Assembly (NCBI GenBank): GCA_963710795.1
Contig: CAVQBT010000067.1
Coordinates: 64,232 to 128,231, forward strand
DNA from: an uncultured delta proteobacterium
Lineage (GTDB): Bacteria > Desulfobacterota > Desulfobacteria > Desulfobacterales > JAFDCJ01
Length of the DNA: 64,000 nucleotides
Reading direction: 5' to 3'
Of the stretch, positions 25,876 through 64,000 are shown in pieces; within the stretch, counting starts at the first letter, position 1; the number at the start of each line of letters is the position of its first letter. The translations under genes and the position numbers were made by a program. A model generated the notes under the pieces. The model searched no databases, had not been told where the DNA came from, and saw only the letters and a program-made list of their open reading frames with translations.

Positions 25876-26652
25876 GTGATTGATATGATGCAACACAGAA
25901 GAGGTATAATAATTTTGACTTTGGTGGCAATAGCCCTGCTAGCCCTGTCAGCGTCGGCTGGCGCCACCCCAATCCCAATTGTTAACTCCAGTTTTGAGGA
26001 TCAGGTGCTGGGGAACGATGATTGGACCTGGTCAGAGCCTCATCCGACGAACCCTTCAGAGCCTGGCTGGAATACTCCGACTCCGGGCTGGGCCAAGGTG
26101 GGCACAGATGGCAACGGGGTATGGAACCCTACATGGAGTGACTTCAGATGGGTGGTCGCACCCGACGGCAAGAATGTGCTGTATACTGAGAGCTCTATTG
26201 ATGGAACTCCCAGCGGAGTGGGGCAGGTCTTGACAGAAAAGTTTGCGGCCAACACAGACTACACGCTGACCGCCAGTGTGGGTAATTCGGATGAGTACTA
26301 CTGGTCGGGCTATAGCGTCCAACTCCTGGCTGGCGAAACCGTTATCGCCGAGGACTACAACACGCTGTGGCCAGACTACAGGAAGTGGGCTACTTCGACG
26401 GTTGACTACAGCTATGACCCGACTGACGGGGCCCTTGTGGGGCAGCCGCTGGAGATTCGCTTGCTTAATTTGGGCATCGATATGGATAAGGATGATAGTG
26501 AAAATTATGATATCGTCGGAGTCGAGTTTGATGCCGTGTCACTCAACGCCGATACACTCAACCCTACACCCACCCCCGAGCCCGCCACCATGCTCCTTCT
26601 AGGCTCTGGATTAGTGGGGCTTGCATGCATCCGGAAGAAGTATAAGAAGTAA
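25876..26652 (+). CDS. PEP-CTERM sorting-domain secreted protein
   Basis: N-terminal signal peptide. The C-terminus ...PTPEPATMLLLGSGLVGLACIRKKYKK has the PEP motif, a TM helix and a basic tail, the exosortase substrate signature. Confidence 0.75.
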   Translation: MIDMMQHRRGIIILTLVAIALLALSASAGATPIPIVNSSFEDQVLGNDDWTWSEPHPTNPSEPGWNTPTPGWAKVGTDGNGVWNPTWSDFRWVVAPDGKNVLYTESSIDGTPSGVGQVLTEKFAANTDYTLTASVGNSDEYYWSGYSVQLLAGETVIAEDYNTLWPDYRKWATSTVDYSYDPTDGALVGQPLEIRLLNLGIDMDKDDSENYDIVGVEFDAVSLNADTLNPTPTPEPATMLLLGSGLVGLACIRKKYKK

Positions 26653-49442: not shown

Positions 49443-50399
49443 ATGAAATTGCGCGTCAGATTGCCATTTTTGCTAGGTTTGTTGATATTTTTATCCTTTG
49501 GCGGGCATGGCATTACCGGTGTTGGAAAAACCGCTTTTGCATTCGAAATCGATGCCGATAAGGTTTTGTGGAACCAGCTTTCCTACCGGGCAAAAAGTAT
49601 TTTTGGCAGGGTGAAAACCGATGTTCATTTGATGGCCGTCCCGGTCGAAGCGGTCGCCGATTTGCTGATAACAGACCCGGCGGGTGAAGCCTTGCAGCCA
49701 TCGGGTGAAACCATATATACTTTAACGGTTAACTCCACTATTAATCCGTTGTTCGGATCCGATGAAATATTAAAAACTAAATCCTGGTTTGACCCGACCG
49801 GTGCCGGCGCACTGCAGCGTGTCAGGCAGCGTCTGGGGAATAAAAAGTGGCAAAGGAGTTATCGCTTTTCCAAAAAGGGAGTCTTTCGGTTGAAAAAAAC
49901 GCCGAAGGATTCAAGAGAAGAAAGTTTGGCACTGGATCAATGGACCCAGATCTCCAGTCATTTCTATTCCTACGGGGATAGTCGCATTGGATGTCCACAG
50001 GTCCTGGAACCGTTATCATTGCTTTATATCGTTTCCGCAATGAAAGCAACAACGGATCCAACGCCTTTGAATCTATGTGTTTTTTATAAAAAGCAATTAC
50101 ACCGGGTCAAGGTTTCCATTGCCGGAACACAATCTTTGAAGGTGGACTATACTGCGAAGCGGGGCGATAGCCAAATTCGAGTGAATAACACAATTGATAC
50201 TATCAAAATCTCCTGTGAACCCAGTCCCTTGTCCCCAACAGGGGTGGACCCGGAGGAGTTTTCCTTTTTGGGGATGAAAGGAAATTTTGATATATTTATA
50301 GATAAAGCTTCAAGAATTCCGGTTCAGGTGAGCGGGAAAATTTCTCCGTTCGGGAAAGTGGATATTCGGTTGCATGACGTCGTGTTAAACCGTAATTGA
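49443..50399 (+). CDS. Secreted hypothetical protein (paralog fragment at 53365-53637)
   Basis: Signal peptide MKLRVRLPFLLGLLIFLSFG. 318 aa. C-terminal about 90 aa are about 70% identical to the fragment ORF at 53338..53637. Confidence 0.5.
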   Translation: MKLRVRLPFLLGLLIFLSFGGHGITGVGKTAFAFEIDADKVLWNQLSYRAKSIFGRVKTDVHLMAVPVEAVADLLITDPAGEALQPSGETIYTLTVNSTINPLFGSDEILKTKSWFDPTGAGALQRVRQRLGNKKWQRSYRFSKKGVFRLKKTPKDSREESLALDQWTQISSHFYSYGDSRIGCPQVLEPLSLLYIVSAMKATTDPTPLNLCVFYKKQLHRVKVSIAGTQSLKVDYTAKRGDSQIRVNNTIDTIKISCEPSPLSPTGVDPEEFSFLGMKGNFDIFIDKASRIPVQVSGKISPFGKVDIRLHDVVLNRN

Positions 50400-50824: not shown

Positions 50825-52174
50825 ATGATAAATTTTTATGGTCGAGAAAAGGAGCTTTCAGTCATTGGTAGTTGGTTTGAGGCTGCCCAAAAAGGGACTC
50901 TGTTCACGGCAATCATCGGTCGCAGACGAATCGGCAAAACTCGCCTGTGGATAGAAGCCAGCAGGAAAAAGGAAAGCTGCCTTTATCTATTCTGCTTACC
51001 AGGTCACATAAAAAGGACTTTTGAACAGGTTGAGCCGCAGTTTTATGATTTAGGATTTACATCAGTACCCCAGGATCTGACTCAATTCTTTAGGGCGATC
51101 GAATTGATTTTGTCCAGGGGTAAAGCGGTAACCATCTTCCTTGATGAAATTCAGAATTTGTTTCTCGAAAACAAGGATGATTTGGCCCTCTTCCAATATT
51201 ACATCGATAATTTTAAGAGAAAACGGTATCCATGTATGATCGTTTTTTGCGGCTCTGTTCAAACCCTGCTGCATAAGATTCTTTTTGAAGAGCACTCACC
51301 GATATATGGCAGGCTCGATCAAAAAATTCAATTGGAGCCCCTTGGATTTTATACGCTTAGGCAATTATATTTCGATAATGATATTAATAAACCGGAACAG
51401 CACCTGAGGCTGTTCAGTATGTTCGGCACTAACCCACGGTTCTATGAAATTTTAGTACAGTTTAACCTCATAAGGTCGAGCACCAAGAAGCTCCTTGAAA
51501 ATGGCTGGCTGGGACTTACGGGCCTTTTTAGCGATGAGCTGAATAAAATGATGCTGCCGGAATTAAAAAGATTGTCCCATGTTTATTCAGGCATCCTGTC
51601 GGCAATGGCAAAAGGCCTTCAGGACGCTAATGAAATTGCCAGCCATGCTGGTATCCATGCAACCTCTTTGGCCAATTACCTGCCATTTTTAATAGATGAT
51701 TTGGACATGGTGGAAAAAGAGACTCAGGTTACAGAAAGGTCCAACTCGAAACTTTCTCGTTACATCATTAAAGATCCCTTTATTCTCTTTTGGTATCGAT
51801 ACATCCAAAAAAATATGGCGCTCCTGGAGATGGGACAAACCGGCAATGTGGTTCGCAAGATTGCCGATGATCTTCCAAACCTCGAAGGCAGAGTGTTGGA
51901 GATAATTTTCAGAGAAAAAATTCTCGCTCGGCCGCCCATGGAATTTGATGTTGCCGGGTCTGTTTTTAAAAACCGGGAGGGTATCGAAATCGACTATTTG
52001 TTGGCCTCGCAGAAATCAAACCATATTCATGCTTATGAGATAAAACGAGGCAAGGTTAACCGCGATGCACAGTTAAATCGGTTAATCGGCAAAACCGCGC
52101 GACTGACATTCAAATCCATAAAACTTCATAACCCGCAGATTACCGGCGAAGTCTTGAATCTGGAGGATATGTAG
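50825..52174 (+). CDS. AAA+ ATPase of the archaeal-ATPase/DUF234 family
   Basis: FYGREKEL...P-loop GRRRIGKT, Walker B FLDEIQ, and the C-terminal DUF234-like region. 449 aa. Confidence 0.65.
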   Translation: MINFYGREKELSVIGSWFEAAQKGTLFTAIIGRRRIGKTRLWIEASRKKESCLYLFCLPGHIKRTFEQVEPQFYDLGFTSVPQDLTQFFRAIELILSRGKAVTIFLDEIQNLFLENKDDLALFQYYIDNFKRKRYPCMIVFCGSVQTLLHKILFEEHSPIYGRLDQKIQLEPLGFYTLRQLYFDNDINKPEQHLRLFSMFGTNPRFYEILVQFNLIRSSTKKLLENGWLGLTGLFSDELNKMMLPELKRLSHVYSGILSAMAKGLQDANEIASHAGIHATSLANYLPFLIDDLDMVEKETQVTERSNSKLSRYIIKDPFILFWYRYIQKNMALLEMGQTGNVVRKIADDLPNLEGRVLEIIFREKILARPPMEFDVAGSVFKNREGIEIDYLLASQKSNHIHAYEIKRGKVNRDAQLNRLIGKTARLTFKSIKLHNPQITGEVLNLEDM

Positions 52175-52583: not shown

Positions 52584-53129
52584 CTAACTGCTTTCATCTC
52601 CCGCTGCCACATAGCTTTTGGAAATTATCAATGTGAGCAGAGAAAATGGTATAAATGCAATCGTTAAAAGCCCTGATAAAAAGGGATAGGCAGTCGGTGG
52701 CTGAACCGGCACTGCATAAATTAGCATCAGACAAAGAACTGAATTTACACTAGCGGCAAGAAAGGCAATGGCAAGTGCAATGTACCTGAACAGGTTTGGA
52801 TGTGAAGCTGTATTCATGCTGGAAGAAAAATAAAGTATAGCTGACAGAATTAATGCCATGATTAGAGATGAGATCACACCAATTTCCGGGACCGGTTGAT
52901 TTGATCCAAAGATATAAGGTGAATAAAGGCTTACGCTAAATAAAGTGAACCAGCAAAATAGAACAAATACTCCAATTGCAATTAAAAGCCAACGCATAAA
53001 AGACGGTTGCATTAAAGGTGGAGGATAAATATGTTTGGCCTTAATAATTGAATAAACCGCTAATAATAAATTTATAATACAAATAATGATCGGGATAATA
53101 GGAATGTTGCGCCCATCCATAAGTCTCAT
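52584..53129 (-). CDS. Hypothetical polytopic membrane protein
   Basis: 181 aa with 5-6 hydrophobic helices. No family recognised. Confidence 0.4.
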   Translation of the reverse strand: MRLMDGRNIPIIPIIICIINLLLAVYSIIKAKHIYPPPLMQPSFMRWLLIAIGVFVLFCWFTLFSVSLYSPYIFGSNQPVPEIGVISSLIMALILSAILYFSSSMNTASHPNLFRYIALAIAFLAASVNSVLCLMLIYAVPVQPPTAYPFLSGLLTIAFIPFSLLTLIISKSYVAAGDESS

Positions 53130-53364
53130 TGTAGATCGGATTGACTTATGATGGCAATAAATAAAGCTGAAGCCGCCAAATAGAGTAGAAATAAAAATGA
53201 AGCTATCCGCATAACAAACCTCTTTCCTTTTATCTCTTAGTCACCATGGAATTGCATCTTAACCTATGCAAAAAAATGGTAACCTTACTTTAAAACTCGG
53301 TGGCTACAACACTTAACATAAAAAACAACTGCACCTGGTGACAGTTTCGGTTAGCGGATCACGA

Positions 53365-53637
53365 TTGTTGAAGGTAAATTTTCTTGAGACGCAGGGCGAT
53401 GATCTCAAGCGAGTGGACAAGAAAATTGACACGATCAAAATTTCCTTCCAAGCGCGTTCGCTGGCCCCAACAAACAAAGAACCCGAGGAATTCTCCTTTC
53501 TGGGACTTAAAGGAAATTTTGATATTTATATCGATAAAGCTTCCCGGGTTCCTGTCCAGGTGAGCGGGAAAATCACCGCCTTCGGCGAAGTTGACATCCG
53601 TTTGCAGGAGATGAATCTAACGCCGCCAAACAGCTGA
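53365..53637 (+). pseudogene. Truncated paralog of the 49443..50399 secreted protein (C-terminal about 90 codons only)
   Basis: ...KKIDTIKISFQARSLAPTNKEPEEFSFLGLKGNFDIYIDKASRVPVQVSGKITAFGEVDIRLQEM vs ...NTIDTIKISCEPSPLSPTGVDPEEFSFLGMKGNFDIFIDKASRIPVQVSGKISPFGKVDIRLHDV. No N-terminal portion is present. Confidence 0.65.
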
Positions 53638-53928: not shown

Positions 53929-55140
53929 TCAGAAAATCGCCGTAAGTTGGCGACGATAAAATTCCTTGAGCTGATCAAAAATGATTTCCTGCCTGTAGCG
54001 TTGCACCACTTTTCTGCGGGCGGCATGTTTCAGAGATTCTCTTAACGCATCATTTTTAAACAAGTTTAGCACCGGTTCAATAAATGCATCCTCGACATTC
54101 GGGTCCGGTACCAAGATAACTTCATCATTTGAATAATGCTCCGCTGCCCCCCCATGGTCGGCCGCGATACAGGGCAATCCGCTGGCGGAAGCCTCCAGTA
54201 GAGTATTGGCCATACCTTCCGGATGCAGGGTCGGGAATACATATAAATCTGCAGCCTGGTAGCAGGTGTGAATATCATTTTGATCCACCGCTCCCTGAAT
54301 ACGGACATTGCTGTATAAATCCAGGGTACTAATCATTTTTTCGAGATATTGCCGGTATTTCGAGTCTCCTCCGCCAACGATCCACAGATAGGTATTCGGC
54401 GCTTCGGATAATATTTTTGGCCACGAGTGGAGAAGCAGATGGGCGCCCTTTTTGGGGACCTGTCGACTCAGCAGGAGTACGATAAATTTTTTATCGGGGA
54501 GGTTCCATTTTTTTCGCAGATTTCGCTTATCTTCCGGAGATGCAGGCTTGAATTTACAGACGTCCACTGCATTGGGGATCACTTTCACCAACGGTTCATA
54601 ACGGTCAGCGCGTGCTTTATCGAATCGATAGGCAGCGTGGGTTTGAGTCCAGATGATATCATAACTTTTCAGGCTGCAATACCTTTTGAATTCTTTTTTT
54701 CCTAAAAAGTGGGTAAAGCGACGCTGGGCCAGGATAAATTTGCAAGGCCAGGTGACTGCCTTGCGAAGTTCTCTACCCATTTTGTATTGTTCATAGAAAA
54801 TTATAATTTTCGGTTTTAATTCCTGCAGCAGCCTGGCCGTCTGCCAGAGGTAGATCAGTTTATCGTTTCCGCTAATTCCATTAAATAGATAAGCTTTGCA
54901 GCGGTTGGGCAAACACAGGTACAGTTTGTGAGAAAGACTCAATCCCATTTTATTCACGGCAATAAAGGAGCCTTGGTTATCATTGTCGCCCTGGCCGGTG
55001 ATTTCCTTATCCCAGTAACTGATCATAACCTGGCGAAATTCATCGAATTGTCGGATTTGTTCGTAAATAAAGCGATTAAAAGAACCGGTCACAAAATGGG
55101 GTTTCTTTGACAAATGCAATATGTCGACATTGTGAATCAT
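53929..55140 (-). CDS. Glycosyltransferase family 4 (GT-B, retaining)
   Basis: C-terminal GT4 motif EGMANTLLEASASGLPCIAADHGGAAE and a GT-B N-terminal half. Confidence 0.75.
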   Translation of the reverse strand: MIHNVDILHLSKKPHFVTGSFNRFIYEQIRQFDEFRQVMISYWDKEITGQGDNDNQGSFIAVNKMGLSLSHKLYLCLPNRCKAYLFNGISGNDKLIYLWQTARLLQELKPKIIIFYEQYKMGRELRKAVTWPCKFILAQRRFTHFLGKKEFKRYCSLKSYDIIWTQTHAAYRFDKARADRYEPLVKVIPNAVDVCKFKPASPEDKRNLRKKWNLPDKKFIVLLLSRQVPKKGAHLLLHSWPKILSEAPNTYLWIVGGGDSKYRQYLEKMISTLDLYSNVRIQGAVDQNDIHTCYQAADLYVFPTLHPEGMANTLLEASASGLPCIAADHGGAAEHYSNDEVILVPDPNVEDAFIEPVLNLFKNDALRESLKHAARRKVVQRYRQEIIFDQLKEFYRRQLTAIF

Positions 55141-55172: not shown

Positions 55173-56051
55173 TTAGAAAATTTGTCCCTGATTATGACTG
55201 ACCCGCAAAGAACTTGGTGACGGGACCCAGATATTTATGCAAGACGCTTTTGGTCGCCTTGCGAGCCAGATTCTGCATATATTCCGAGGAATATTGGGAC
55301 TCAATCTGCGGGTATTCGGCAAGATTCCAGTCTGACAGTCATAGCCGATGCATTTCATGTAGGCAGTGTAAGCCGGCTTAAATAGGCTAACATCCTCTAC
55401 CGTAAACCAATGGCGCCAGTCGCCGGTGGATTTTTTCCGGATCACCTTGGCCTTGCCGGTTGATTGCGGGACATTCGCATCAGCCTGGACATTAAAGCCA
55501 AGATATTCGTTGAGCGCATCGAAATTTTTTGCGACCATATTCTCATAGGTAAAAAAGAACCAATCCTCACCCAGTTGTTTCACAAAATCATGCATCCGCT
55601 GATAGCGAACCTGTTCTTCTTCAAAAACGTTCTCCATCGACAGCGGCCATTCATTGAATCTGGCATAACGGTATATCTCAGAAAAGGAAACGGAAGCGGG
55701 ATCGTTTTCTTTTTTCAAAACCAGATCCAGGTGGGCCTGGTACTGCTCTTTTTGGCCTTTGTTGCCTTTTTGCCACCGGTACAGCATCCGACTGACCGCC
55801 ACATCGCGGGGATCACGTGCCAGCCAGATTTTGCGGTCATATTGCACCTCTTTTAAGTGATTCAAATATAAGTCAAAACTCTTGCCCTTGCTTTCTTCAT
55901 AAGTATGTTTGTAGACAGCGTTTTCATAGTCTCCTAAATATTTTCCGGGCCGACCACCTGAAAAAGCCTGACAGTTCGGAAGTCCGCCCGCCACTTTGTA
56001 TACCAGAGCGGTGGTCCCTGACTTGCCGGTACCTAAAATAAAAATTCTCAT
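55173..56051 (-). CDS. Sulfotransferase (PAPS-dependent), paralog 1. Possible frameshift near the 3' end
   Basis: 5'-PSB P-loop LGTGKSGTT and 3'-PB RDPRDVAVS. About 70% identical to the 61466..62326 paralog up to ...GYDC. After that the paralog-like C-terminus (DWNLAEYPQIESQYSSEYMQNLARKATKSVLHKYLGPVTKFF) is only recovered in the -1 frame (around 55320). Confidence 0.7.
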   Translation of the reverse strand: MRIFILGTGKSGTTALVYKVAGGLPNCQAFSGGRPGKYLGDYENAVYKHTYEESKGKSFDLYLNHLKEVQYDRKIWLARDPRDVAVSRMLYRWQKGNKGQKEQYQAHLDLVLKKENDPASVSFSEIYRYARFNEWPLSMENVFEEEQVRYQRMHDFVKQLGEDWFFFTYENMVAKNFDALNEYLGFNVQADANVPQSTGKAKVIRKKSTGDWRHWFTVEDVSLFKPAYTAYMKCIGYDCQTGILPNTRRLSPNIPRNICRIWLARRPKASCINIWVPSPSSLRVSHNQGQIF

Positions 56052-56072
56052 ACTTAACCTCCAGAAATATAT

Positions 56073-57494
56073 TTAACCGGCGCTAATTCGGTAAAACCGG
56101 TTGAAAATTTTTTCAATTCTCAGTTCTGATTGGTCACCGAGCACCAGTTGAAATTGGTTCAATTTCGCCCGTATGTCATCAATGGAAATATCAGGATAGC
56201 GATGCCGCAAAAAATCAGGGCGGTTGTGCGATAAATTGGTGCGGTAACCCCTGATCCGTTTTTTGATTCGACGCCTGGTCGCCCAATACCAGCTTCGGAG
56301 CCGATTATTTAAACCGGGGGGCGAGGCATCGAATGAACGGCGTGCCATTTCTTCGAAAATATCAACCATGCGCTCAGAGGCCAGAGGGCCTTTCTGTGCT
56401 GCCAGATATCGATTAATTAGCGAATGGCGATGTTCCACGTCAGTCGGCTCAAATTTGTTGGATAGAATTCTGGCAAGAGTTTCTCTCAGTGTTTCGAACT
56501 CAAAGCACTGATAACTTAGCTGGTTGGCCAGGTGATGAAATGCCTTATCAAACCGTTCATTGACTGATGCCCGGTAAGATATAGCCGGCGTACTAACTGC
56601 AAAGGCTTCCACCCCGGTAGTGCACCCGTTGTGAATCAACACCTTTGCAGCAATTAACCAGGGGACTACATTTCCCTCATTAGTCACCTTAACACGTTTG
56701 AATTTTGCAGCAATATCCTGATAAATCTGCTGATTTTCGGAAGGGTGAGGCCGAACAATTATATTGAAGTCCGGGAAGGCTTTTTCCAGTTTCGGTATCA
56801 GTAATTGAAAATCTTTAAAGATAGAATATTTGTGATTATGCAGCGCTTCAGCGCTCGCGCGATTTAATCCCAGGCTGATGGCCTTGCGACCCAATTCGTT
56901 TTTATTTCCATTATTCAAGGCTGGCGGGATTAAATTCATATCCGCATGATAAGCATTAACCAAACCAAAATTGGTGTTGATCAGGATGAAATCACCGAAC
57001 TTTTCCCGGATTTTTTCCACTTCGCTATCATAATACACCCGAATCTCGGGCCGCAACAGATCGCCCCGTGGATTTCCGGTAACGCTGATTTTAACCGCCT
57101 TTTCTGAGGGAAATTCCGGATATTGACGCCACAATTCAGCGTTATCTTCACCCCAGGCCAACAAATGGGAAACATATCCCAGTGAAACCGGCGAGAGCCG
57201 ATGCCGGTAATAGGTCGCCGGCGGCAAATGCACCAGGGCTTCTTCATCCCAGGCCGCAATATGATGCCCAAGCCGGTGTAATGTCCGAAAGACACCTCTG
57301 CTGCCCTTGGTTATACTCTTGGACAGGTAAATGCTGTGGGGAAATGCGGGGATATGAAAATGCATCTCTCGGCGGGGGCCGATGATTGAAGAAAACCCAC
57401 GGCGAGCTGCAACGCAGGCCAACAGAAGTTTGGGGTCAAGCTCGCGCACCTGATTTTCGACTGGGATGAGAAGTGTCGGATTCAATTGTTCCAT
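56073..57494 (-). CDS. Capsule-polysaccharide-biosynthesis-family protein (KpsS/KpsC/LpsZ-like), paralog 1
   Basis: 473 aa. Paralogous to 62337..63758 and to the partial gene at the window end (shared LIPVENQVRELDPKLLLAC, IVRPHPSENQQIYQDIA, VIHNGCTTGVEA blocks). The family assignment is by overall resemblance only. Confidence 0.45.
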   Translation of the reverse strand: MEQLNPTLLIPVENQVRELDPKLLLACVAARRGFSSIIGPRREMHFHIPAFPHSIYLSKSITKGSRGVFRTLHRLGHHIAAWDEEALVHLPPATYYRHRLSPVSLGYVSHLLAWGEDNAELWRQYPEFPSEKAVKISVTGNPRGDLLRPEIRVYYDSEVEKIREKFGDFILINTNFGLVNAYHADMNLIPPALNNGNKNELGRKAISLGLNRASAEALHNHKYSIFKDFQLLIPKLEKAFPDFNIIVRPHPSENQQIYQDIAAKFKRVKVTNEGNVVPWLIAAKVLIHNGCTTGVEAFAVSTPAISYRASVNERFDKAFHHLANQLSYQCFEFETLRETLARILSNKFEPTDVEHRHSLINRYLAAQKGPLASERMVDIFEEMARRSFDASPPGLNNRLRSWYWATRRRIKKRIRGYRTNLSHNRPDFLRHRYPDISIDDIRAKLNQFQLVLGDQSELRIEKIFNRFYRISAG

Positions 57495-57520
57495 TATTTT
57501 CTTAATTATTATATCTTGAC

Positions 57521-58693
57521 TTAATAGCAGATTGTTTTTTGGGGATTGACCTGGCTCATTTGGTGCAGGATATCGGCAATTTTTATGCCGGCCTCTCCAC
57601 TGCCGTAAATTTGTTCACCCGTTGTGCGTTTGGAGTTAATTTGCCGTTTAACTGCCTCGACAATCGCTTCGCGTTCATAGGCTACATCAATCACGTTGCG
57701 TCCTCGAACTCTCATGTTTTGTCGGTTTCCGATATTGACAGCCGGGGTGCCGATAAAAGATCCTTCACGAATAGCACTGCTGGAATTCCCCAGCATGCAA
57801 GCAGATAGGTCCATCAGTTTGACATAAACTGAGACTGGAAGATTCAAAAAGAGATGCAGCCACTCAGGCCTATGAACCTCCCTGAAATGTCTAATTCCTT
57901 TGGAGATTTCATCGGATCCGGCATCGGCATTCGGCCATATCATAATGGTGGGCATTTGAAGCGCTTGCAGGGCAAAAAGCGTTTCATCAATCGATATTTT
58001 ATTCCGGCCGTATTCTGTCGTGACCGGGTGTTGAGATACCAGCAGAAACGACTCTTTTTCGATATCAAATTTCCCGCCGACGCCTTTAAAAGTGGCAAAA
58101 AAACCTTCCTGGTCTATTCTGTCTCCGTTGCGATGGTTTTCAAGGTGTTCTTTAACGATATCGATTCGGGGACACCCCACATTGAACACCATATCTTCAG
58201 GTTCACCGAGCTTAATGATTCTTTGTTTGGCATCATCATTAGCCGGAAAATGAATGTGCGCCATTTTAGTTATAGCATGCCGGATACTTTCATCAATCGT
58301 TCCGGAGACTTCGCCGCCCATGGTATGCGCGATGGGAATGTTCATATAAGAGGCTGCTATGGCCGGTGCCATGACATCGAATCGGTCTCCCACAAGGACT
58401 ATAATATCGGGTTTCAGATTGTCGAAGATCATGCTGCATTCAATCATTCCCAGCCCGGTGGACTTGGCCATTGTAATGGGGTTTTCTCCCTCAACGATCA
58501 TATAGAATTTGGCATCAATGTCAAATCCATCCTCTTTGACAAGCCGCTCAATATTTCCAAAGCGATCTAAAAGGGCCGAACCTCCCAAGATGACCTGAAG
58601 CGTGAGCTCCGGCTTATTTTGAATGGCTCGCATGATTGATAGGCAGGATGAATAGTTTGCGCGTGATCCGACAAATACACAGATTTTTTTCAT
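57521..58693 (-). CDS. neuC: UDP-N-acetylglucosamine 2-epimerase (hydrolysing), NeuC type
   Basis: MKKICVFVGSRANYS...IVLVGDRFD...HTMGGEVSGTIDESIRHAITKMAHIHF are NeuC/SiaA hallmarks. Confidence 0.8.
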   Translation of the reverse strand: MKKICVFVGSRANYSSCLSIMRAIQNKPELTLQVILGGSALLDRFGNIERLVKEDGFDIDAKFYMIVEGENPITMAKSTGLGMIECSMIFDNLKPDIIVLVGDRFDVMAPAIAASYMNIPIAHTMGGEVSGTIDESIRHAITKMAHIHFPANDDAKQRIIKLGEPEDMVFNVGCPRIDIVKEHLENHRNGDRIDQEGFFATFKGVGGKFDIEKESFLLVSQHPVTTEYGRNKISIDETLFALQALQMPTIMIWPNADAGSDEISKGIRHFREVHRPEWLHLFLNLPVSVYVKLMDLSACMLGNSSSAIREGSFIGTPAVNIGNRQNMRVRGRNVIDVAYEREAIVEAVKRQINSKRTTGEQIYGSGEAGIKIADILHQMSQVNPQKTICY

Positions 58694-58721
58694 TTGTTCC
58701 TCTGTTTACACTACGAGTTAA

Positions 58722-59426
58722 TCAGGCTGATTTCCGAGATGCTAAAATCAATTCACATAATTTTAAATCGAAAAGATCGTCAACATCGATGGAACATTCC
58801 TTTCCCATCAGGTAGGGCAGTATTTTTTCGCCATAGATGCTGTGCTTGTCCATCAGGCAACTATAAGTAAAGGCATATATGGCTGCTCCATTGCGGGCGT
58901 AAAAAACAGGCTTTAATTGACGTAAGTTGCAACTTTCATCCATCGGAAGATAGGGAGATAGATGTTCTCCTTCTAATTTCATAATCGAACCCGGTGTGAA
59001 ATTATGGGGGATTTCAACGACACTGATCACAGAGTCCGCCCCGGATCGAATTAATTTGGTTAGCGCCTCATCTATATGATTCTCCGTTCTCAGCGGAGAA
59101 GTGGGCTGGAGAAGTATTATGTAATCAGCGCGATAATTTTCAGTTTCTGCTAACCATTCGATGGCATGCCTGACAACCGGCAGGGCCGGTGTGTCATCCT
59201 GCGCCAGTTCGGCCGGTCGGACAAAAGGTGCTTCCAATCCATAACCTGTGGCTATATTGAGAATCTCCTTGGAATCCGTGCTGATAATGGCCCGGGTTAT
59301 CATTTCGCTTTTTTGGATCGCTTTAATCGTATAATATATTAAGGGCCTGTCGCAAAGCGGGTAGATGTTTTTGCGCGGGATGCCTTTTGATCCTCCCCGG
59401 GCGGGAACAATTGCGAGAATGTTCAT
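58722..59426 (-). CDS. neuA: N-acylneuraminate (nonulosonate) cytidylyltransferase
   Basis: MNILAIVPARGGSKGIPRKNI is the CMP-NeuAc/CMP-Kdo synthetase family N-terminus. An upstream in-frame ATG at 59450 would overlap the neuB stop as ATGA. Confidence 0.75.
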   Translation of the reverse strand: MNILAIVPARGGSKGIPRKNIYPLCDRPLIYYTIKAIQKSEMITRAIISTDSKEILNIATGYGLEAPFVRPAELAQDDTPALPVVRHAIEWLAETENYRADYIILLQPTSPLRTENHIDEALTKLIRSGADSVISVVEIPHNFTPGSIMKLEGEHLSPYLPMDESCNLRQLKPVFYARNGAAIYAFTYSCLMDKHSIYGEKILPYLMGKECSIDVDDLFDLKLCELILASRKSA

Positions 59427-59446
59427 CGAATCACTATCCGTTCTTG

Positions 59447-60469
59447 TCATCCGTTCTTGCCAGATGACAGTATGTTCCACTCTATCATCTTATTTTTCGG
59501 AATTTTTTGAATTGCTTTTTTGCCGAGTAGCTCTTTAAAGCGATTCGCCGGGATACCGTTACCGGGCTTTTTAAATGCCAGATGATGCGCTTCTAAAATG
59601 GTGCCGGCCGCTATTTCCGATTTTGCGACAACGCTTTTTTGAAAGGTGTCTTTCATGGTTTTAAGGGAAAATGCTTTTTGGTCTTTGTCAATATTCATGG
59701 ACAAGGCCGCATCCACATCCCGTATGCTTTGCACCATCAGTTTAAATTCAGATGGTGTCATTGAAAATTGGGCATCCGGGCCATACATCTGTTGGCTGAG
59801 GGTAAAATGCTTCTCAATCACGCTTGCCCCCATAGCCACTGCGGCTATAGGAACCGCACTGCCGATGGTGTGGTCCGAAAGTCCGACTGGCAAAGCATAA
59901 CGCTTTTTTAGGTCCTGCAATACATTTAAGCCTGCCTGTTCCGGCGGGCAGGGATACTCCGATGTACACTGAAGAATGACTATATCCAGGCACCCATGGC
60001 TGCGCAGCGTCTCCACCGCCTCGTCCAGTTCAGACCAGAAACTCATGCCGCTGGACAGCAGAACGGGTTTGCCGGTAGCGGCGATTTTAATCAAGAGCGG
60101 CAGATTGGTAACCTCTCCTGACGCAATTTTATAGGCCCTGACACCGATTGATTCCAATAGATCCACGGCTTCTATCGAAAAAGGAGAAGAAAAAAAATCT
60201 ATTTTACATTGCTTCTCCGCATACAATTTGAGTTTTTGCCACGTCTCCTGATTAAAACCGACCCGGGCAAAGTACTCCTGACGGGTCTCGTCTGAAAAAT
60301 ACGGCGGGTTGGGTGCCTCCGGTAAACTTTCCGCTTCAAACATATGCGTTTGGAACTTAACCGCATCGACCCCGCAATCTGCCGCAGCTTTTATAAAACA
60401 CTTGGCCAAACCTAGCGATCCCTCATGGGTATTTCCAATTTCTGCAATAATTTTGGTCCGTGCTCTCAT
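59447..60469 (-). CDS. neuB: N-acetylneuraminate (nonulosonate) synthase with C-terminal SAF domain
   Basis: ...KIIAEIGNTHEGSLGLAKCFIKAAADCGVDAVKFQTH... (the NeuB TIM barrel) and a C-terminal antifreeze-like/SAF domain. Confidence 0.8.
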   Translation of the reverse strand: MRARTKIIAEIGNTHEGSLGLAKCFIKAAADCGVDAVKFQTHMFEAESLPEAPNPPYFSDETRQEYFARVGFNQETWQKLKLYAEKQCKIDFFSSPFSIEAVDLLESIGVRAYKIASGEVTNLPLLIKIAATGKPVLLSSGMSFWSELDEAVETLRSHGCLDIVILQCTSEYPCPPEQAGLNVLQDLKKRYALPVGLSDHTIGSAVPIAAVAMGASVIEKHFTLSQQMYGPDAQFSMTPSEFKLMVQSIRDVDAALSMNIDKDQKAFSLKTMKDTFQKSVVAKSEIAAGTILEAHHLAFKKPGNGIPANRFKELLGKKAIQKIPKNKMIEWNILSSGKNG

Positions 60470-60491
60470 ACTTAGAAACCTTAAAGCCCTT

Positions 60492-61362
60492 TTAACTGCC
60501 GCACAATTGCCTGAAAAAATCCTCTGACGCGGCAAAGCCGCTGACGGTTATCTTGCCGCTTGGTTCGACATAGCGTTGCACCGCCAGCGGCACTAGTCGT
60601 GATTTTTCAAACAGCAGGCAAAGTGTCACGGGATCGAACAAATAGAAGTGAAGGGATCCCAGGATGTTGTCATTCGGTTCCCGGTAGCGGACGGTCTCTT
60701 TATCCGGAACTTCAACATAAACTAATCCGCATTCAGATAGGCAATCTTTTACATTTTTTAAAAAGTCAACGGGATCCTGGATATGTTCCAGAACCTTAAT
60801 CAGCGTAATTAACTCCTGAGACTCTGCGACAACTAATTTGGAAAAATAATTTTCGATGACCTTAAATTTTCTCAAGCGCTCTCAAATGCTCGCAGGCATA
60901 ATGGTTGGGTTCAACAGCGCTCGCTACCCAATCCGGCGCATTTTCAAGGAATCGATATAAAAATATTCCCGTACCGGATCCTATATCCAGTATGCGCTTG
61001 TTCAGATCAGCGGGTATGAGATGGCTGTAAGTCGAATAAAAATCAGCTAAATAACTTCGAATGCGTTTTACCCGATATTGGTTGTCCGACTTTTCGGGGG
61101 CCAGCGCCAGAATGCGGCTGAAACGCTCCGAAACACTTTCCTTTTCGACTTGTGCGCTGTAGTATTGGTCATCATATAAATACGAAATGTCCTTCCGATC
61201 ATAGTTGTCAATCAACAGCCCGCAGCCTGCACACGCAACCCATGCGCGCCGGTAGTTTTTCTCTGATATTCCTGCTGCGCGCTCAAATCTATCAGGCCTG
61301 TCAATCGTTAAGACAGTTTCTCCCGCAGTTGAGGTGCACAAAGGGCATTCAATTTGTTTCAA
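60492..61362 (-). pseudogene. Class I SAM-dependent methyltransferase split by a -1/+1 frameshift in an A-run (60860-60870)
   Basis: ORF 60862..61362 ends ...LDIGSGTGIFLYRF...ACEHLRALEKI*. ORF 60492..60875 continues (R)KFKVIENYF...DLITLIKVLEHIQDP... (MTase motifs I and II-III). Removing one A from GAGAAAATTT gives a continuous ...LRALEKFKVIENYF... protein. An N-terminal 4-Cys zinc ribbon (CPLC...CAGC) is present. Confidence 0.6.
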
Positions 61363-61465
61363 TTAATTAACTTCCTTTGATCGCATTTTGTCGGATTTCT
61401 TTGGTTTGCCGGTTATCCGCATATAACCCCTTGAGACGTCGTTGATCTTGATACTTGATACCCCG

Positions 61466-62326
61466 CTATTGTTTTTTTACTAGACGCTGTACAATGGGAT
61501 CCAGGTAGCGCAGGATGCTGTTTTTGGCGGCCTTGCGGGGCAGATTTTGCATATAAACCGAAGCGTACTCGGGTTCTATCACCGGATGCGGGCTGGGCGT
61601 CCAGTCAGTGCAGTCATAGCCAATCAGTTCCATGTAGGGTGTAAAGGCCGGTTTGAAAATCTCAACATCCTCTGTGGTGAACCAGTGGCGCCAATCGCCG
61701 GTGGATTTTTTACGAATCACTTTGGCCTTGCCGGACGCACTCGGTACGGTCGCATCGGACTGGACCTCAAATCCCAGGTAGTTGTTGAGGGCGTCAAATT
61801 GGCCGGCGACCATTTCCTCAAAAGTGAAACGAAACCAGTCACTTCCAAGCTCATTGACAAATTTAACCATTTGCTCATAACGGTGTTGTTCCTCTTCAAC
61901 TACCTGATCCACGGATCGGGGCCAACCGTTGTGTCCCGTATAACGACAAATCTCGTAAAAGGGCACGCTGTCAGGATCCGCTTCCTTTTTCAAGACAAGG
62001 TCGATATGGGCCTGGTATTGCTCTTTATGTCCCTTGATGCCCTTGTGCCAGCGATACAGCATGCGACTGACGGCGGCATCGCGGGGATCACGGGCCATCC
62101 AAATCTTACGATCATAATGTTCCTTGCTTAAATGTTCCTGGAAAACTTCGAAGCTTTTACCTTTACGCTCTTCATAGGTATGCTTATAAACTGCATTTTC
62201 GTAATCGCCGATATGTTTGCCCGGACGACCGCCTGAAAATGCATGGCAGTTCGGCAGTCCGCCGGCCACTTTATACACCATGACCGTCGTGCCGGTCTTG
62301 CCGGTTCCCAGTATCAAAATCTTCAT
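61466..62326 (-). CDS. Sulfotransferase (PAPS-dependent), paralog 2
   Basis: LGTGKTGTT P-loop and RDPRDAAVS 3'-PB motif. 286 aa. A tandem paralog of 55173..56051. Confidence 0.75.
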   Translation of the reverse strand: MKILILGTGKTGTTVMVYKVAGGLPNCHAFSGGRPGKHIGDYENAVYKHTYEERKGKSFEVFQEHLSKEHYDRKIWMARDPRDAAVSRMLYRWHKGIKGHKEQYQAHIDLVLKKEADPDSVPFYEICRYTGHNGWPRSVDQVVEEEQHRYEQMVKFVNELGSDWFRFTFEEMVAGQFDALNNYLGFEVQSDATVPSASGKAKVIRKKSTGDWRHWFTTEDVEIFKPAFTPYMELIGYDCTDWTPSPHPVIEPEYASVYMQNLPRKAAKNSILRYLDPIVQRLVKKQ

Positions 62327-62336
62327 ATAAATCCTC

Positions 62337-63758
62337 CTATGGACGGAGCAGAAAAACCTGATCCGATATTTGTTCTGCTTTTATGGTGCTGTTGTCGCCG
62401 AGCACCCGCTGAATTCTGGCTATCCGGTTCGTTAATTCCTGCAGCGAAATGCCGGGATAGCGGTGGCGGTGAAATTCCGGCGGCGCTTGCTTGCCCGGCA
62501 GATGTTTGCGAACGTACTTAACCAGGCGCCGCAAGCCGGCAAAGCCCCTGCCCAAAAGTCGATCGCGCAGCGGTGGTGTCGGTAGATGCGGCTGGCGGTC
62601 CATCTTTATCGCCAGAACATCAACAATGCGCTCACAGGCCAGCGGACCATCCTGCGCCGCTAGATAGTGATTGACCAGCGCCCGGCGTTCATCACCATTG
62701 GCTGCACCAAGCTCGCCGTTAAATATTCGGGTCAGCGTTTCCCGCAGCTGATCAACATCGAAACATTGATGACTGATTAAATTGGGCAGCCGGTAGAATC
62801 CCATATCGTATGTTTCTTCGATCTCGGCCCGATAGGATATTGCCGGAACGCCCATCATATAGGCTTCCACCCCGGTGGTACAGCCGTTGTGGATAACAAC
62901 GTCGGTTGCCATGAGCCAGGGAACCACATTGCCTTCGTTGGTGACCCGGACCCGTTGGCATTCCCCGGCGATATCCTGGTAAACCTGCTGATTTTCCGTC
63001 GGGTGCGGCCGGACAATTATCGTGTGATCGGGAAAAGTCCGGTCCAGCATGGGAATCATTTCCTTGAAGGTGTTCAAAACAGCCTGCTTGTGATCCCGCA
63101 GTCCTTCGGCATATTCTCTGCTCATTCCGACGGCCGCTTTGCCGAATTGAGGCGGTTTCCCGGCAGTTTTGACCGGTCGAAACAGGTTCTGGGCCGGGAA
63201 AAAGGCATTCACATGGTTGAAATTGGTATTGACCAGGATAAAATTGCCATAGGTTTGACGTATTTCCGCTACTTCCGGTTTGTAAAAGGACCGCAATTCG
63301 GGCCGCAGCATATCACTGCGGGGATTGCCGGTGACATGAATCGGCATGTCCGGCGGAAGGCCGGGGTACTGGCGCCATAATTCGGCATTATCCTCGCCCC
63401 AGGCAAACAGGTGCGAGTTGTATCGAATCGCAATCGGCGAAAGCCTGCGGGAATAATAGGTTTCAGCCGGCAGATGAACCAAAGCCTCTTCATCCCAGGT
63501 CAGAATCTCGTGGCCCATTTTTTCCATGATTCGAAACATTTTCAGATTGCGTTCGGTCATGCTTTTGTTGAGATACAAGCTTTGCGGAAAAGATGTAATC
63601 TGAAAATCAACTTCGCGGTGAGATCCGATTATAACCGCAAATCCGCGCTGCACGGCAATGCAGGCCAGCAACAACTTGGGGTCAAGCTCGCGTACCTGGT
63701 TTTCGACCGGTATGATGAGACACGCTTTGGCGTTATTTATGTTTGCGAGATTTCTCAT
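62337..63758 (-). CDS. Capsule-polysaccharide-biosynthesis-family protein (KpsS/KpsC-like), paralog 2
   Basis: Shares ...LIIPVENQVRELDPKLLLACIA..., IVRPHPTENQQVYQDIA and VIHNGCTTGVEA with paralog 1. GGGAGA SD before the ATG at 63758. Confidence 0.45.
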   Translation of the reverse strand: MRNLANINNAKACLIIPVENQVRELDPKLLLACIAVQRGFAVIIGSHREVDFQITSFPQSLYLNKSMTERNLKMFRIMEKMGHEILTWDEEALVHLPAETYYSRRLSPIAIRYNSHLFAWGEDNAELWRQYPGLPPDMPIHVTGNPRSDMLRPELRSFYKPEVAEIRQTYGNFILVNTNFNHVNAFFPAQNLFRPVKTAGKPPQFGKAAVGMSREYAEGLRDHKQAVLNTFKEMIPMLDRTFPDHTIIVRPHPTENQQVYQDIAGECQRVRVTNEGNVVPWLMATDVVIHNGCTTGVEAYMMGVPAISYRAEIEETYDMGFYRLPNLISHQCFDVDQLRETLTRIFNGELGAANGDERRALVNHYLAAQDGPLACERIVDVLAIKMDRQPHLPTPPLRDRLLGRGFAGLRRLVKYVRKHLPGKQAPPEFHRHRYPGISLQELTNRIARIQRVLGDNSTIKAEQISDQVFLLRP

Positions 63759-63831
63759 GTTTTCTTTCTCCCGGAGACGTGTCAACCCTGACGGCCATTC
63801 CGCCGGCATTCAGCAAAGGTTGCCGGGATGG

Positions 63832-63990
63832 ATTCAACTGCTCAGGCGGATATTCGAAAGAGCACGTCACTGAGTTGCTCAACTTTCAGCTTGGCAGTAT
63901 CTCCGATGATCTGCTGGATACGTTCTATTTTGTTGTTCAGCGCGCCAAGGGATATTCCCGGGAATCGATGGCGCTGAAACTCCGGTCGAT
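63832..63990 (-). CDS. Third KpsS/KpsC-like paralog, C-terminal 52 codons only (gene runs off the window end)
   Basis: The reverse complement reads ...NTHNRPEFQRHRFPGISLGALNNKIERIQQIIGDTAKLKVEQLSDVLFRISA*, homologous to the C-termini of the two paralogs (NRPDFLRHRYPDISIDD...RISAG). Confidence 0.5.
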
Positions 63991-64000
63991 TGTGAGTATT

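Follow-up and report, generated by a model that had tools for sequence, protein, structure and literature searches.

The locus, from a bacterium of sulfate-reducer type, occupies the last part of the window, by which we mean the whole 64,000-nt stretch of DNA analysed here, and contains the following features, all encoded on one strand.

53929..55140, minus strand: GT4 family glycosyltransferase, at the end of the operon (Pfam Glycos_transf_1, 113 bits)
55173..56051, minus strand: sulfotransferase 1, module B (PF00685, 31.2 bits against a cutoff of 22)
56073..57494, minus strand: TIGR04396 protein 1, module B, probable CMP-nonulosonic-acid transferase, GT-B fold
57521..58693, minus strand: NeuC-type hydrolysing UDP-GlcNAc 2-epimerase (TIGR03568, 387 bits)
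58722..59480, minus strand: NeuA-type CMP-nonulosonate synthetase (PF02348, 79 bits; likely start near 59426)
59447..60535, minus strand: NeuB-family nonulosonate synthase (PF03102, 275 bits, plus a SAF domain)
60492..61362 (60492-60875 and 60862-61362), minus strand: frameshifted SAM-dependent methyltransferase (partial Methyltransf_23 match in each ORF)
61466..62326, minus strand: sulfotransferase 2, module A (PF00685, 27.7 bits against a cutoff of 22)
62337..63809, minus strand: TIGR04396 protein 2, module A (TIGR04396, 385.7 bits; start may be 63758)
63842..64000, minus strand: C-terminal 52 codons of a third TIGR04396 gene (from translation), continuing past the window edge

All genes named in the initial annotation are present in the minus-strand order it gave, and its central observation, a module of a partner gene and a sulfotransferase gene that occurs twice together with a third partner gene, is borne out by the coordinates. 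The two paralogous modules lie 6.3 kb apart, with intramodule gaps of 10 and 21 nt, and the intergenic gaps of the operon range from 10 to 51 nt; such pairing of paralogous modules with short gaps is far beyond chance. Two boundaries needed revision. The partial third partner gene does exist, but its stop end is at 63842 and it runs off the window at 64000, rather than spanning 63832-63990, and position 63758, given as the beginning of the second partner gene, is an internal ATG of an ORF that extends to 63809. Neither PAPS-synthesis genes nor export genes, including kps, are visible within the 64-kb window, and the locus continues past its edge. On balance, we favor the view that the genes seen here form the distal portion of a single long minus-strand operon, which serves to make an acidic sulfated surface glycan.

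Both sulfotransferases score above the gathering threshold of PF00685 (Sulfotransfer_1). They are paralogous, as initially proposed, with a measured identity of 66% (180/273) instead of the estimated 70% or so; at the DNA level, only one 300-nt stretch is still recognisable between the duplicated modules, at 70%. The sites expected for PAPS-dependent catalysis are invariant among 38 sequences: the 5'-phosphosulfate loop (5'-PSB; G7-T-G-K10-x-G-T-T14), the catalytic His (K48-H49), the 3'-phosphate motif (3'-PB; R79-D-P-R-D83...S87), and the C-terminal R205-K206...G210-D-W212. These motifs align to those of SULT enzymes and, judged by them, both proteins carry the full PAPS-binding set of the cytosolic SULT type, so that their initial assignment as PAPS-type sulfotransferases, from the P-loop and RDPRD motifs, stands. 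In a PDB profile search, 20 of 20 matches were SULT-family proteins, all remote (best E 0.0025). The structure model was poor (pLDDT 64.4, P-loop region unmodelled), and Foldseek run with this model gave a best E of 0.059, with the top 21 matches all being sulfotransferases. Sulfotransferase 1 carries a 1-nt deletion near 55336 that leaves the catalytic part intact; its conserved C-terminal 47 residues resume in another frame, with a stop at about 55192-55194. The shift thus explains why the ORF runs on to 55173, which is not the true end of the gene. Its ortholog in a related locus, L041, is 86% identical. Sulfotransferase 2 has 1127 homologs and was assigned to sulfotransferase (ST) orthogroup 13.

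The partner proteins (~470 aa) are clearly paralogous, as claimed, with 51% identity between proteins 1 and 2 (238/463). Both belong to the large family TIGR04396, "surface carbohydrate biosynthesis protein": protein 1 scores 373.6 bits and protein 2 has the score listed above, against a cutoff of 125, and the matches span positions 1-426 of the 427-position profile. The same family name is carried by source annotations of homologs, of which more than 4000 were scored here; our literature search found no paper naming TIGR04396. The two proteins also match NF046086, the BFO_1060 family, over nearly its full length (56.4 bits, E 2.6e-15, and 72.2 bits, E 4.3e-20). Neither reaches the curated cutoff of 200 bits, and by these scores they are distant relatives of that family rather than members. 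In T. forsythia, knock-out and complementation demonstrated that Pse/Leg transfer depends on two BFO_1060-family proteins, Tanf_01245 and TFUB4_00887 (PMC5420450). No solved structure was detectable by sequence for TIGR04396, neither window protein matched Pfam at E<=0.01, and PF04464 (Glyphos_transf) was matched by only 2 of 48 members (best E 0.13). The fold of the partner protein is a TagF/TarL-like GT-B fold. R248-P249-H250-P251, which includes the HP motif, and H288-N-G-C-T...E296 are invariant in TIGR04396 proteins; a canonical D/E-D/E-G motif was not found in them, the nearest element being an invariant W-D83-E84-E.

The initial annotation identified the partner proteins as KpsS/KpsC-like. 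As retaining transferases of this family (GT107/GT118-like), they would polymerize nonulosonic acid, giving rise to a sulfated homopolymer or oligomer. The HP motif is present, one to four tandem TIGR04396 paralogs per locus recall the division of labour between KpsS and KpsC, which act in that order, and KpsS1 of A. baumannii, a GT118 enzyme, transfers Pse by a retaining mechanism, as cited in PMC12887879. The family assignment is nevertheless refuted: PF05159 matched neither the window proteins nor any of 48 TIGR04396 members (E<=10), and the KpsC and WbbB Kdo-transferase modules are not among the nearest folds of the partner protein. We consider this explanation highly improbable. The broader interpretation put forward initially is retained in part.

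Alternatively, the TIGR04396 proteins could be phosphotransferases or polymerases of the TagF/TarL type, which would use CDP donors to build a phosphodiester-linked, teichoic-acid- or capsule-like polymer that is then sulfated; their tie to nonulosonic-acid genes would merely reflect a shared surface-glycan locus. Several observations make this unlikely. The window contains no CDP-alditol synthesis genes, the cytidylyltransferases near the cassette are of the CTP_transf_3 (CMP-sugar) type, and TIGR04396 is related in sequence to the proven Pse/Leg transferases, which also bear a "TagB domain". Furthermore, a 24%-identical TIGR04396 member of Azospirillum thermophilum is the only transferase-like gene within a complete Leg cluster. 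The dispensability of SpsB, a TagB-like candidate of B. subtilis, for Leg transfer (PMC7439481) counts against reading TIGR04396 proteins as nonulosonic-acid transferases. From their family relationships, we regard them as probable CMP-nonulosonic-acid transferases.

The genes located between the modules are consistent with this assignment. NeuC exceeds the equivalog cutoff of TIGR03568 (235.9 bits), and its best PDB match is the epimerase domain of GNE (244 bits; LegG-type, 203 bits). NeuB scores 362 bits with TIGR03569, below the cutoff of 399.65, and lower, 283 bits, with the PseI profile; the best PDB match is N. meningitidis NeuB (187 bits; PseI, 162 bits). NeuA is matched at the family level by PF02348 and falls below the PseF cutoff (146 against 205.7 bits), with CMP-Neu5Ac synthetase 6ifd as its best PDB match (137 bits). 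No bacillosamine genes were found within the 64-kb window. The NeuCBA product is probably Neu5Ac-like, and may alternatively be of the Leg type. The frameshift first noted in the methyltransferase gene is confirmed for this sequence and stems from a 1-nt insertion within an A4/T3 run at about 60866-60875; in L041, the orthologous ORF (289 aa) is uninterrupted. The GT4 ortholog in L041 occupies the same position, with 70% identity. If the two frameshifts, in the methyltransferase and sulfotransferase 1 genes, are not assembly errors, they may mean that module B is undergoing decay in this genome.

The two-gene cassette is present in more than 50 other environmental genomes. Of 60 sulfotransferase genes that could be assessed in Desulfobacterota and Gammaproteobacteria MAGs, 52 come immediately after a TIGR04396 gene (47 strict and 5 recovered adjacencies); L056 and L057 contain orphan sulfotransferases with no partner. 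The orthogroups of the cassette partners agree, ST13 occurring with TIGR04396 orthogroup T12 and ST7/8 with T2/1, and the pairwise distances of sulfotransferases and partners are correlated (0.69). The pair is thus a conserved, co-inherited cassette, and its wide recurrence suggests a so far undescribed surface coat of acidic, sulfated sugars. The initial annotation envisaged dating the duplication by comparing the paralogs; the two window cassettes fall into different ancient orthogroups, and therefore the duplication is not a recent tandem event. TIGR04396 protein 2 belongs to orthogroup 12, the sulfotransferase-adjacent copy of an array conserved in about 18 loci; the best matches of the third partner gene (79-83% identity) are from orthogroup 10, which holds the middle position in three-copy loci.

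Of 30 loci, 22 have a CMP-sugar cytidylyltransferase gene at most 10 kb from the cassette, and 15 have a NeuB-family gene. No cytidylyltransferase gene was found at this distance in the remaining 8 loci; in one of them, L003, an NTP_transf_3 gene and LptFG occur in its place. The cassettes of L009, L018, and L062 are bordered by Pse, Neu/Leg-like, or modified NulO pathways. In relatives, the putative genes for the sugar of module A are found immediately upstream and encode a NeuB-like synthase, an SDR, an aldehyde dehydrogenase, a cytidylyltransferase, and a transketolase.

Taken together, these data make it somewhat more probable than its opposite that each cassette uses a CMP-activated ulosonic acid, probably Neu5Ac-like in this locus, as the donor for a transfer whose glycan product is subsequently sulfated. 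The glycan would be assembled in the cytoplasm, with the operon contributing two ancient paralogs of the conserved cassette. In module B, NeuC, NeuB, and NeuA would convert UDP-GlcNAc to a CMP-activated Neu5Ac-like nonulosonic acid. TIGR04396 protein 1, a predicted soluble GT-B enzyme with a TagB/TagF-like fold and the invariant RPHP motif, would take this sugar from its CMP donor and attach it to an acceptor linked to lipid or protein; PAPS-dependent O-sulfation of the product by sulfotransferase 1 would follow, the GT4 enzyme would add a further sugar, and the glycan would presumably be exported to the surface. By comparison, in module A, TIGR04396 proteins 3 and 2 and sulfotransferase 2 may act alike on a second CMP-activated acid sugar, whose genes, judging by relatives, would lie beyond the window edge in this genome.

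The sulfotransferase gene is tight to the TIGR04396 gene and was duplicated with it and with no other glycosyltransferase, which fits a sulfotransferase that recognises the TIGR04396 product. We tentatively propose, at well below even confidence, that each cassette's sulfotransferase modifies the nonulosonic (or related ulosonic) acid just transferred by its partner. About equally possible is that the same cassette places sulfate on another heteroglycan residue, a hexose or hexosamine added by GT4, GT2, or GT61 enzymes, or on the acceptor before nonulosonic acid addition, to yield a sulfated, sialylated heteropolysaccharide. In the window, as in L019, L023, L024, L042, and L063, the cassette has GT4 or GT2 genes beside it; in L018, GT2 and GT61 genes and a 329-aa ORF separate the TIGR04396 gene from the sulfotransferase gene, and L062 has one visible sulfotransferase for two ulosonic-acid pathways. 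Known bacterial sulfated polysaccharides are sulfated on hexoses, for example Gal-2,3-disulfate in Cobetia (PMC6801904). The neighboring GT2, GT4, and GT61 genes favor a heteroglycan.

Nonulosonic-acid transferases represent the least known step of bacterial sialic-acid-like glycosylation. Because TIGR04396 proteins are in fixed pairing with a SULT-like sulfotransferase, a concrete hypothesis that can be tested is available for both partners. A study of microbial extracellular polymers found sialylation as well as sulfation but could not identify the responsible sulfotransferases (PMC10483923); the cassette is a candidate for such sulfation in sediment sulfate reducers and sulfur oxidisers. 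Should the nonulosonic acid indeed carry the sulfate, sialic-acid sulfation would extend from animals to bacteria, and O-sulfated sialic-acid-like sugars would be displayed by Desulfobacterota and by some marine Gammaproteobacteria. No earlier sialate/nonulosonate sulfotransferase would then be known from bacteria, and the CMP-nonulosonate transferases paired with these enzymes would form a new family of TagF-like structure.

Among known systems, the T. forsythia transferases (Tanf_01245, TFUB4_00887, and BFO_1060) are likewise soluble TagB-like GT-B proteins of about 450 aa with the HP motif, encoded next to nonulosonic-acid synthesis genes (Pse/Leg there, NeuC/NeuB/NeuA here). They belong, however, to NF046086, a curated family separate from TIGR04396, and no sulfotransferase partner has been described in Tannerella. 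KpsS/KpsC (GT107), WbbB (GT99), and KpsS1 (GT118) resemble the proposed system in their CMP-activated 2-keto-3-deoxy sugars and in having several paralogs in sequence, and KpsS1 is a capsule-type enzyme able to transfer nonulosonic acid (PMC12887879); the window proteins fall outside the KpsS/KpsC family and have no ABC-transporter capsule genes nearby. From TagF/TarL/TagB, the glycerol- or ribitol-phosphate transferases of teichoic acid synthesis, and the TagF-like capsule polymerases Bcs3 and Cps3D, the system differs in that its genomic neighbors are CMP-sugar synthetases and not CDP-alditol synthases. Rhizobial LpsS and M. loti KpsS are bacterial polysaccharide sulfotransferases of sulfated capsule/LPS loci. 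The Cobetia marina CPS locus (PMC11766843) similarly encodes PAPS-dependent sulfation of a surface polysaccharide within a glycan locus. Unlike the part of the locus within the window, loci of this type have their own PAPS and kps export genes, and their sulfotransferase lacks a fixed pairing with a dedicated ulosonic-acid transferase. The vertebrate sialate O-sulfotransferases, reportedly WSCD1/WSCD2, are to our knowledge the only enzymes that sulfate a sialic acid. These and the cytosolic SULT enzymes are, like the window proteins, PAPS-dependent enzymes of the Sulfotransfer_1 type, and the motifs RxPxDxxVS and RKxxxGDW are common to SULT and window sulfotransferases; in contrast to the vertebrate enzymes, the latter are bacterial, cytoplasmic proteins of about 286 aa without extra domains.

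The minus-strand gene order proposed in the initial annotation was reproduced by ORF listing of the 50–64 kb region, with translation of the incomplete gene at the window edge:

63842–64000, minus strand: third partner gene (TIGR04396 family), last 52 codons only
62337–63809, minus strand: partner 2 (TIGR04396 family)
61466–62326, minus strand: sulfotransferase 2
60862–61362 and 60492–60875, minus strand: methyltransferase, two overlapping ORFs
59447–60535, minus strand: NeuB
58722–59480, minus strand: NeuA
57521–58693, minus strand: NeuC
56073–57494, minus strand: partner 1 (TIGR04396 family)
55173–56051, minus strand: sulfotransferase 1
53929–55140, minus strand: GT4 glycosyltransferase

Neighbouring genes of the locus are separated by 10–51 nt or slightly overlap, which fits a single operon. 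A scan of 52.5–64 kb for promoters and terminators gave counts not above those of shuffled controls, and no genes for PAPS (the sulfate donor) or for export were found within the 64-kb window. Bordering the glycan locus, a 99-aa ORF (53338–53637) repeats, at 61% identity, the C-terminal third of a 318-aa protein without a Pfam family (49443–50399). An archaeal-type ATPase_2/DUF234 gene (50825–52174) and a gene for a small membrane protein (52584–53129) lie between the two, and the segment looks like an insertion or a variable segment. Elsewhere in the window, a PEP-CTERM-anchored protein with an HpiC1-like domain (25876–26652) implies an exosortase-dependent surface-protein system in the organism.

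The two sulfotransferases are paralogous, as initially described, at 66% identity rather than about 70%. When the two partner–sulfotransferase modules were compared, DNA-level likeness was left in one 300-nt stretch only (70%). Both proteins exceed the PF00685 gathering score of 22 (31.2 bits for sulfotransferase 1 and 27.7 for sulfotransferase 2). A family profile searched against the PDB matched SULT-family structures only (best E 0.0025), with alignments spanning the 3'-phosphate motif and the C-terminal RKxxxGDWxxxFT motif. Four blocks are invariant in 38 sequences: G7TGKxGTT14, K48-H49, R79DPRD...S87 and R205K...GDW212. A structure model built from a shallow alignment (77–97% identity) reached a pLDDT of 64.4, and a fold search with this poor model gave nothing significant, its top 21 matches all being sulfotransferases. 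Among 1127 homologs scored, the best 120 (77–97% identity) carry only the name hypothetical protein and come from Desulfobacterales MAGs. A plasmid collection contained no sulfotransferase homolog and one distant TIGR04396 match.

The partner proteins, 51% identical to each other, had been labelled KpsS-like. Neither has a match in a Pfam scan, and none of 48 family members matches PF05159 (Capsule_synth) at E<=10; the KpsS/KpsC assignment was therefore rejected. Instead, the partners score 374 and 386 bits against TIGR04396 (NCBIfam "surface carbohydrate biosynthesis protein", cutoff 125), and they have a TagB/TagF-like GT-B fold. Nothing was found in PDB sequence searches with TIGR04396 proteins, whether as single sequences or as a profile. 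NF046086, the "BFO_1060 family glycosyltransferase", aligns over nearly the full length (E 2.6e-15 and 4.3e-20), at 56 and 72 bits below its cutoff of 200. Tannerella forsythia Tanf_01245 and TFUB4_00887, for which a TagB domain and HP motifs were noted, have BFO_1060 as their homolog in strain 92A2; their deletion strips the O-glycan of its terminal pseudaminic or legionaminic acid derivative, and complementation restores it (PMC5420450). A caution for the transferase reading comes from the TagB-like SpsB of Bacillus subtilis, which is dispensable for legionaminic-acid transfer (PMC7439481). Weak matches at E<=10 were to Epimerase_2 in 13 of the 48 family members and to Glyphos_transf in two; that the partners act as TagF-like phosphotransferases is a minority alternative that we consider improbable. 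No paper found in the literature search mentions TIGR04396.

The cassette is conserved well beyond this locus. A scan of species-representative genomes for the sulfotransferase returned 56 loci, mostly in Desulfobacterales, Desulfobulbaceae, Desulfuromusa and Geobacteraceae MAGs, with several in Gammaproteobacteria (Sedimenticola, Thiohalobacter); at 28–34% identity, four loci are distant outgroups, and the in-family loci are all from MAGs. In gene maps, 47 sulfotransferase genes directly follow a TIGR04396 gene of the same orientation. In five further cases the upstream copy is frameshifted, cut by a contig end or masked by an over-long ORF call, bringing the adjacency to 52 of the 60 in-family cases that could be assessed. 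Among the cases that deviate are a transposase insertion (L034), a locus with intervening GT2 and GT61 genes (L018) and two orphan sulfotransferase copies without a TIGR04396 partner. The orphans, near-identical and one of them truncated, lie on two contigs of one MAG (L056 and L057; 6320–10855), flanked by a two-component system on one side and RND/HlyD efflux genes on the other; either a copy has moved or the assembly has duplicated it. In the distant homologs of Massilia and Telluria (L058, L060), a methyltransferase domain is fused to the sulfotransferase.

The closest relative, L041, has the gene order of the window and starts with the tail of a sulfotransferase 2 ortholog. Two window genes that are frameshifted are intact there. 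Sulfotransferase 1 has a 1-nt deletion near 55336 (TGTCA instead of the expected TGT TCA), so that its catalytic part and its conserved 47-residue C-terminal tail (SDWNLAEYPQIESQYSSEYMQNLARKATKSVLHKYLGPVTKFFAGQS; window 55192–55340) are read in different frames; the deletion is either a true lesion or a product of faulty assembly. In the methyltransferase gene, a single base is inserted in an A4/T3 run (GAGAAAATTTAAGG; window 60862–60875), and the L041 ortholog of this gene reads through as a 289-aa protein. Since the names of related MAGs suggest long-read assemblies, both frameshifts may be assembly errors.

Clustering showed that partner orthogroups match sulfotransferase orthogroups. Partner 2 and sulfotransferase 2 belong to the pair T12/ST13, present in about 18 loci, and partner 1 and sulfotransferase 1 form T2/ST7 with L041. 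Next to T2/ST7 stands T1/ST8 of L007, L009 and L046; NeuB/NeuC genes are invariably adjacent. For the third window copy the match is T10, which holds the middle position in loci with three copies. The pairwise distances among partners and those among sulfotransferases are correlated (r=0.69, 42 pairs), with shared species phylogeny contributing. From the matching orthogroups and this correlation it follows that the cassette duplicated as a unit, long ago. A recent tandem duplication was rejected by the orthogroup analysis.

NeuC, NeuB and NeuA are sufficient to convert UDP-GlcNAc to CMP-Neu5Ac. In the window, NeuC passes its equivalog cutoff, whereas NeuB and NeuA give family-level matches only. 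The best solved relatives are the GNE epimerase domain for NeuC (244 bits vs 203 for LegG), meningococcal NeuB for NeuB (187 bits vs 162 for PseI) and CMP-Neu5Ac synthetase for NeuA (137 bits). No bacillosamine-type dehydratase, aminotransferase or acetyltransferase genes lie within the 64-kb window; a legionaminic-type product of the route is still conceivable.

In relatives, the typical conserved array begins with a NeuB-like synthase (about 30% identical to window NeuB), an SDR, a GucD-like aldehyde dehydrogenase, a CTP_transf_3 cytidylyltransferase and a fused transketolase. Next come between one and three TIGR04396 genes, in some loci interrupted by a PLD-like gene, and finally the sulfotransferase. 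The upstream part of the array occupies 336–6950 in L009, 1–4406 in L062 and 1–3600 in L063; by analogy with these relatives, it probably lies beyond position 64000 in the source genome. The enzymes of this part may produce an uncommon CMP-activated acidic sugar, perhaps a dicarboxylic 'ulosaric' acid; no paper on this gene combination was found. The region downstream is variable. L007, L009, L046 and the window have a second NeuB/NeuC/NeuA set there, accompanied by its own cassette; L062 has a complete set for pseudaminic acid, and L063 only GT2 and methyltransferase genes, followed by the DUF4015, PAS kinase and HAD genes that also flank the window locus. Thirty loci have 8 kb or more of upstream sequence; within 10 kb, 22 of them carry a CTP_transf_3-family gene and 15 a NeuB-family gene. 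Of the BLAST-negative loci, L033 has a cytidylyltransferase gene and L042 has DegT, acetyltransferase and C-methyltransferase genes. The cultured Azospirillum thermophilum encodes a 24%-identical TIGR04396 member, with no sulfotransferase, inside a full legionaminic-acid cluster (LegB, LegC, NeuC, acetyltransferase, cytidylyltransferase, NeuB, amidotransferase).

In three-copy loci, the PLD-like gene (PLDc_2) is interleaved between the TIGR04396 paralogs (L062, 5937–6992; L063, 5957–7087), which hints at a phosphodiester or phospholipid-anchored acceptor, comparable to the lipid-linked Kdo linker of group 2 capsules. In one lineage (L003/L012, 1–20858), the cassette lies between lptF/lptG and genes resembling those of bacterial sphingolipid synthesis (AMP-binding enzyme, acyl carrier protein, Aminotran_1_2, epimerase/reductase, DAGK_cat kinase), with an NTP_transf_3 gene in place of the NeuA-type gene.

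The initial idea of a CMP-ulosonic-acid transferase coupled to a PAPS sulfotransferase thus survives in modified form, without its KpsS/KpsC label. We lean towards a model in which the cognate CMP-sugar is the donor for each cassette's transferase and the glycan so formed is sulfated by the sulfotransferase at the cytoplasmic face. By inspection, neither protein has a signal peptide or membrane segment, and PAPS is cytoplasmic. The sulfate might end on the ulosonic acid itself or on a neighbouring glycan residue, two placements that we rate about equally and each below even odds. GT2, GT4 and GT61 genes in these loci make a homopolymer unlikely.

Sialylation and sulfation have both been reported for granular-sludge polymers, in which sulfotransferases were not identifiable (PMC10483923). 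KpsS1 (GT118), a true KpsS relative, is described as transferring pseudaminic acid (PMC12887879), so that the transfer concept is not new for the KpsS lineage. No paper tying a sulfotransferase to bacterial nonulosonic acids was found. A sulfated Kdo may occur in Cobetia. Bacteria are already known to make sulfated polysaccharides, and likewise nonulosonic-acid glycans; for the conserved cassette coupling the two, no characterisation was found.
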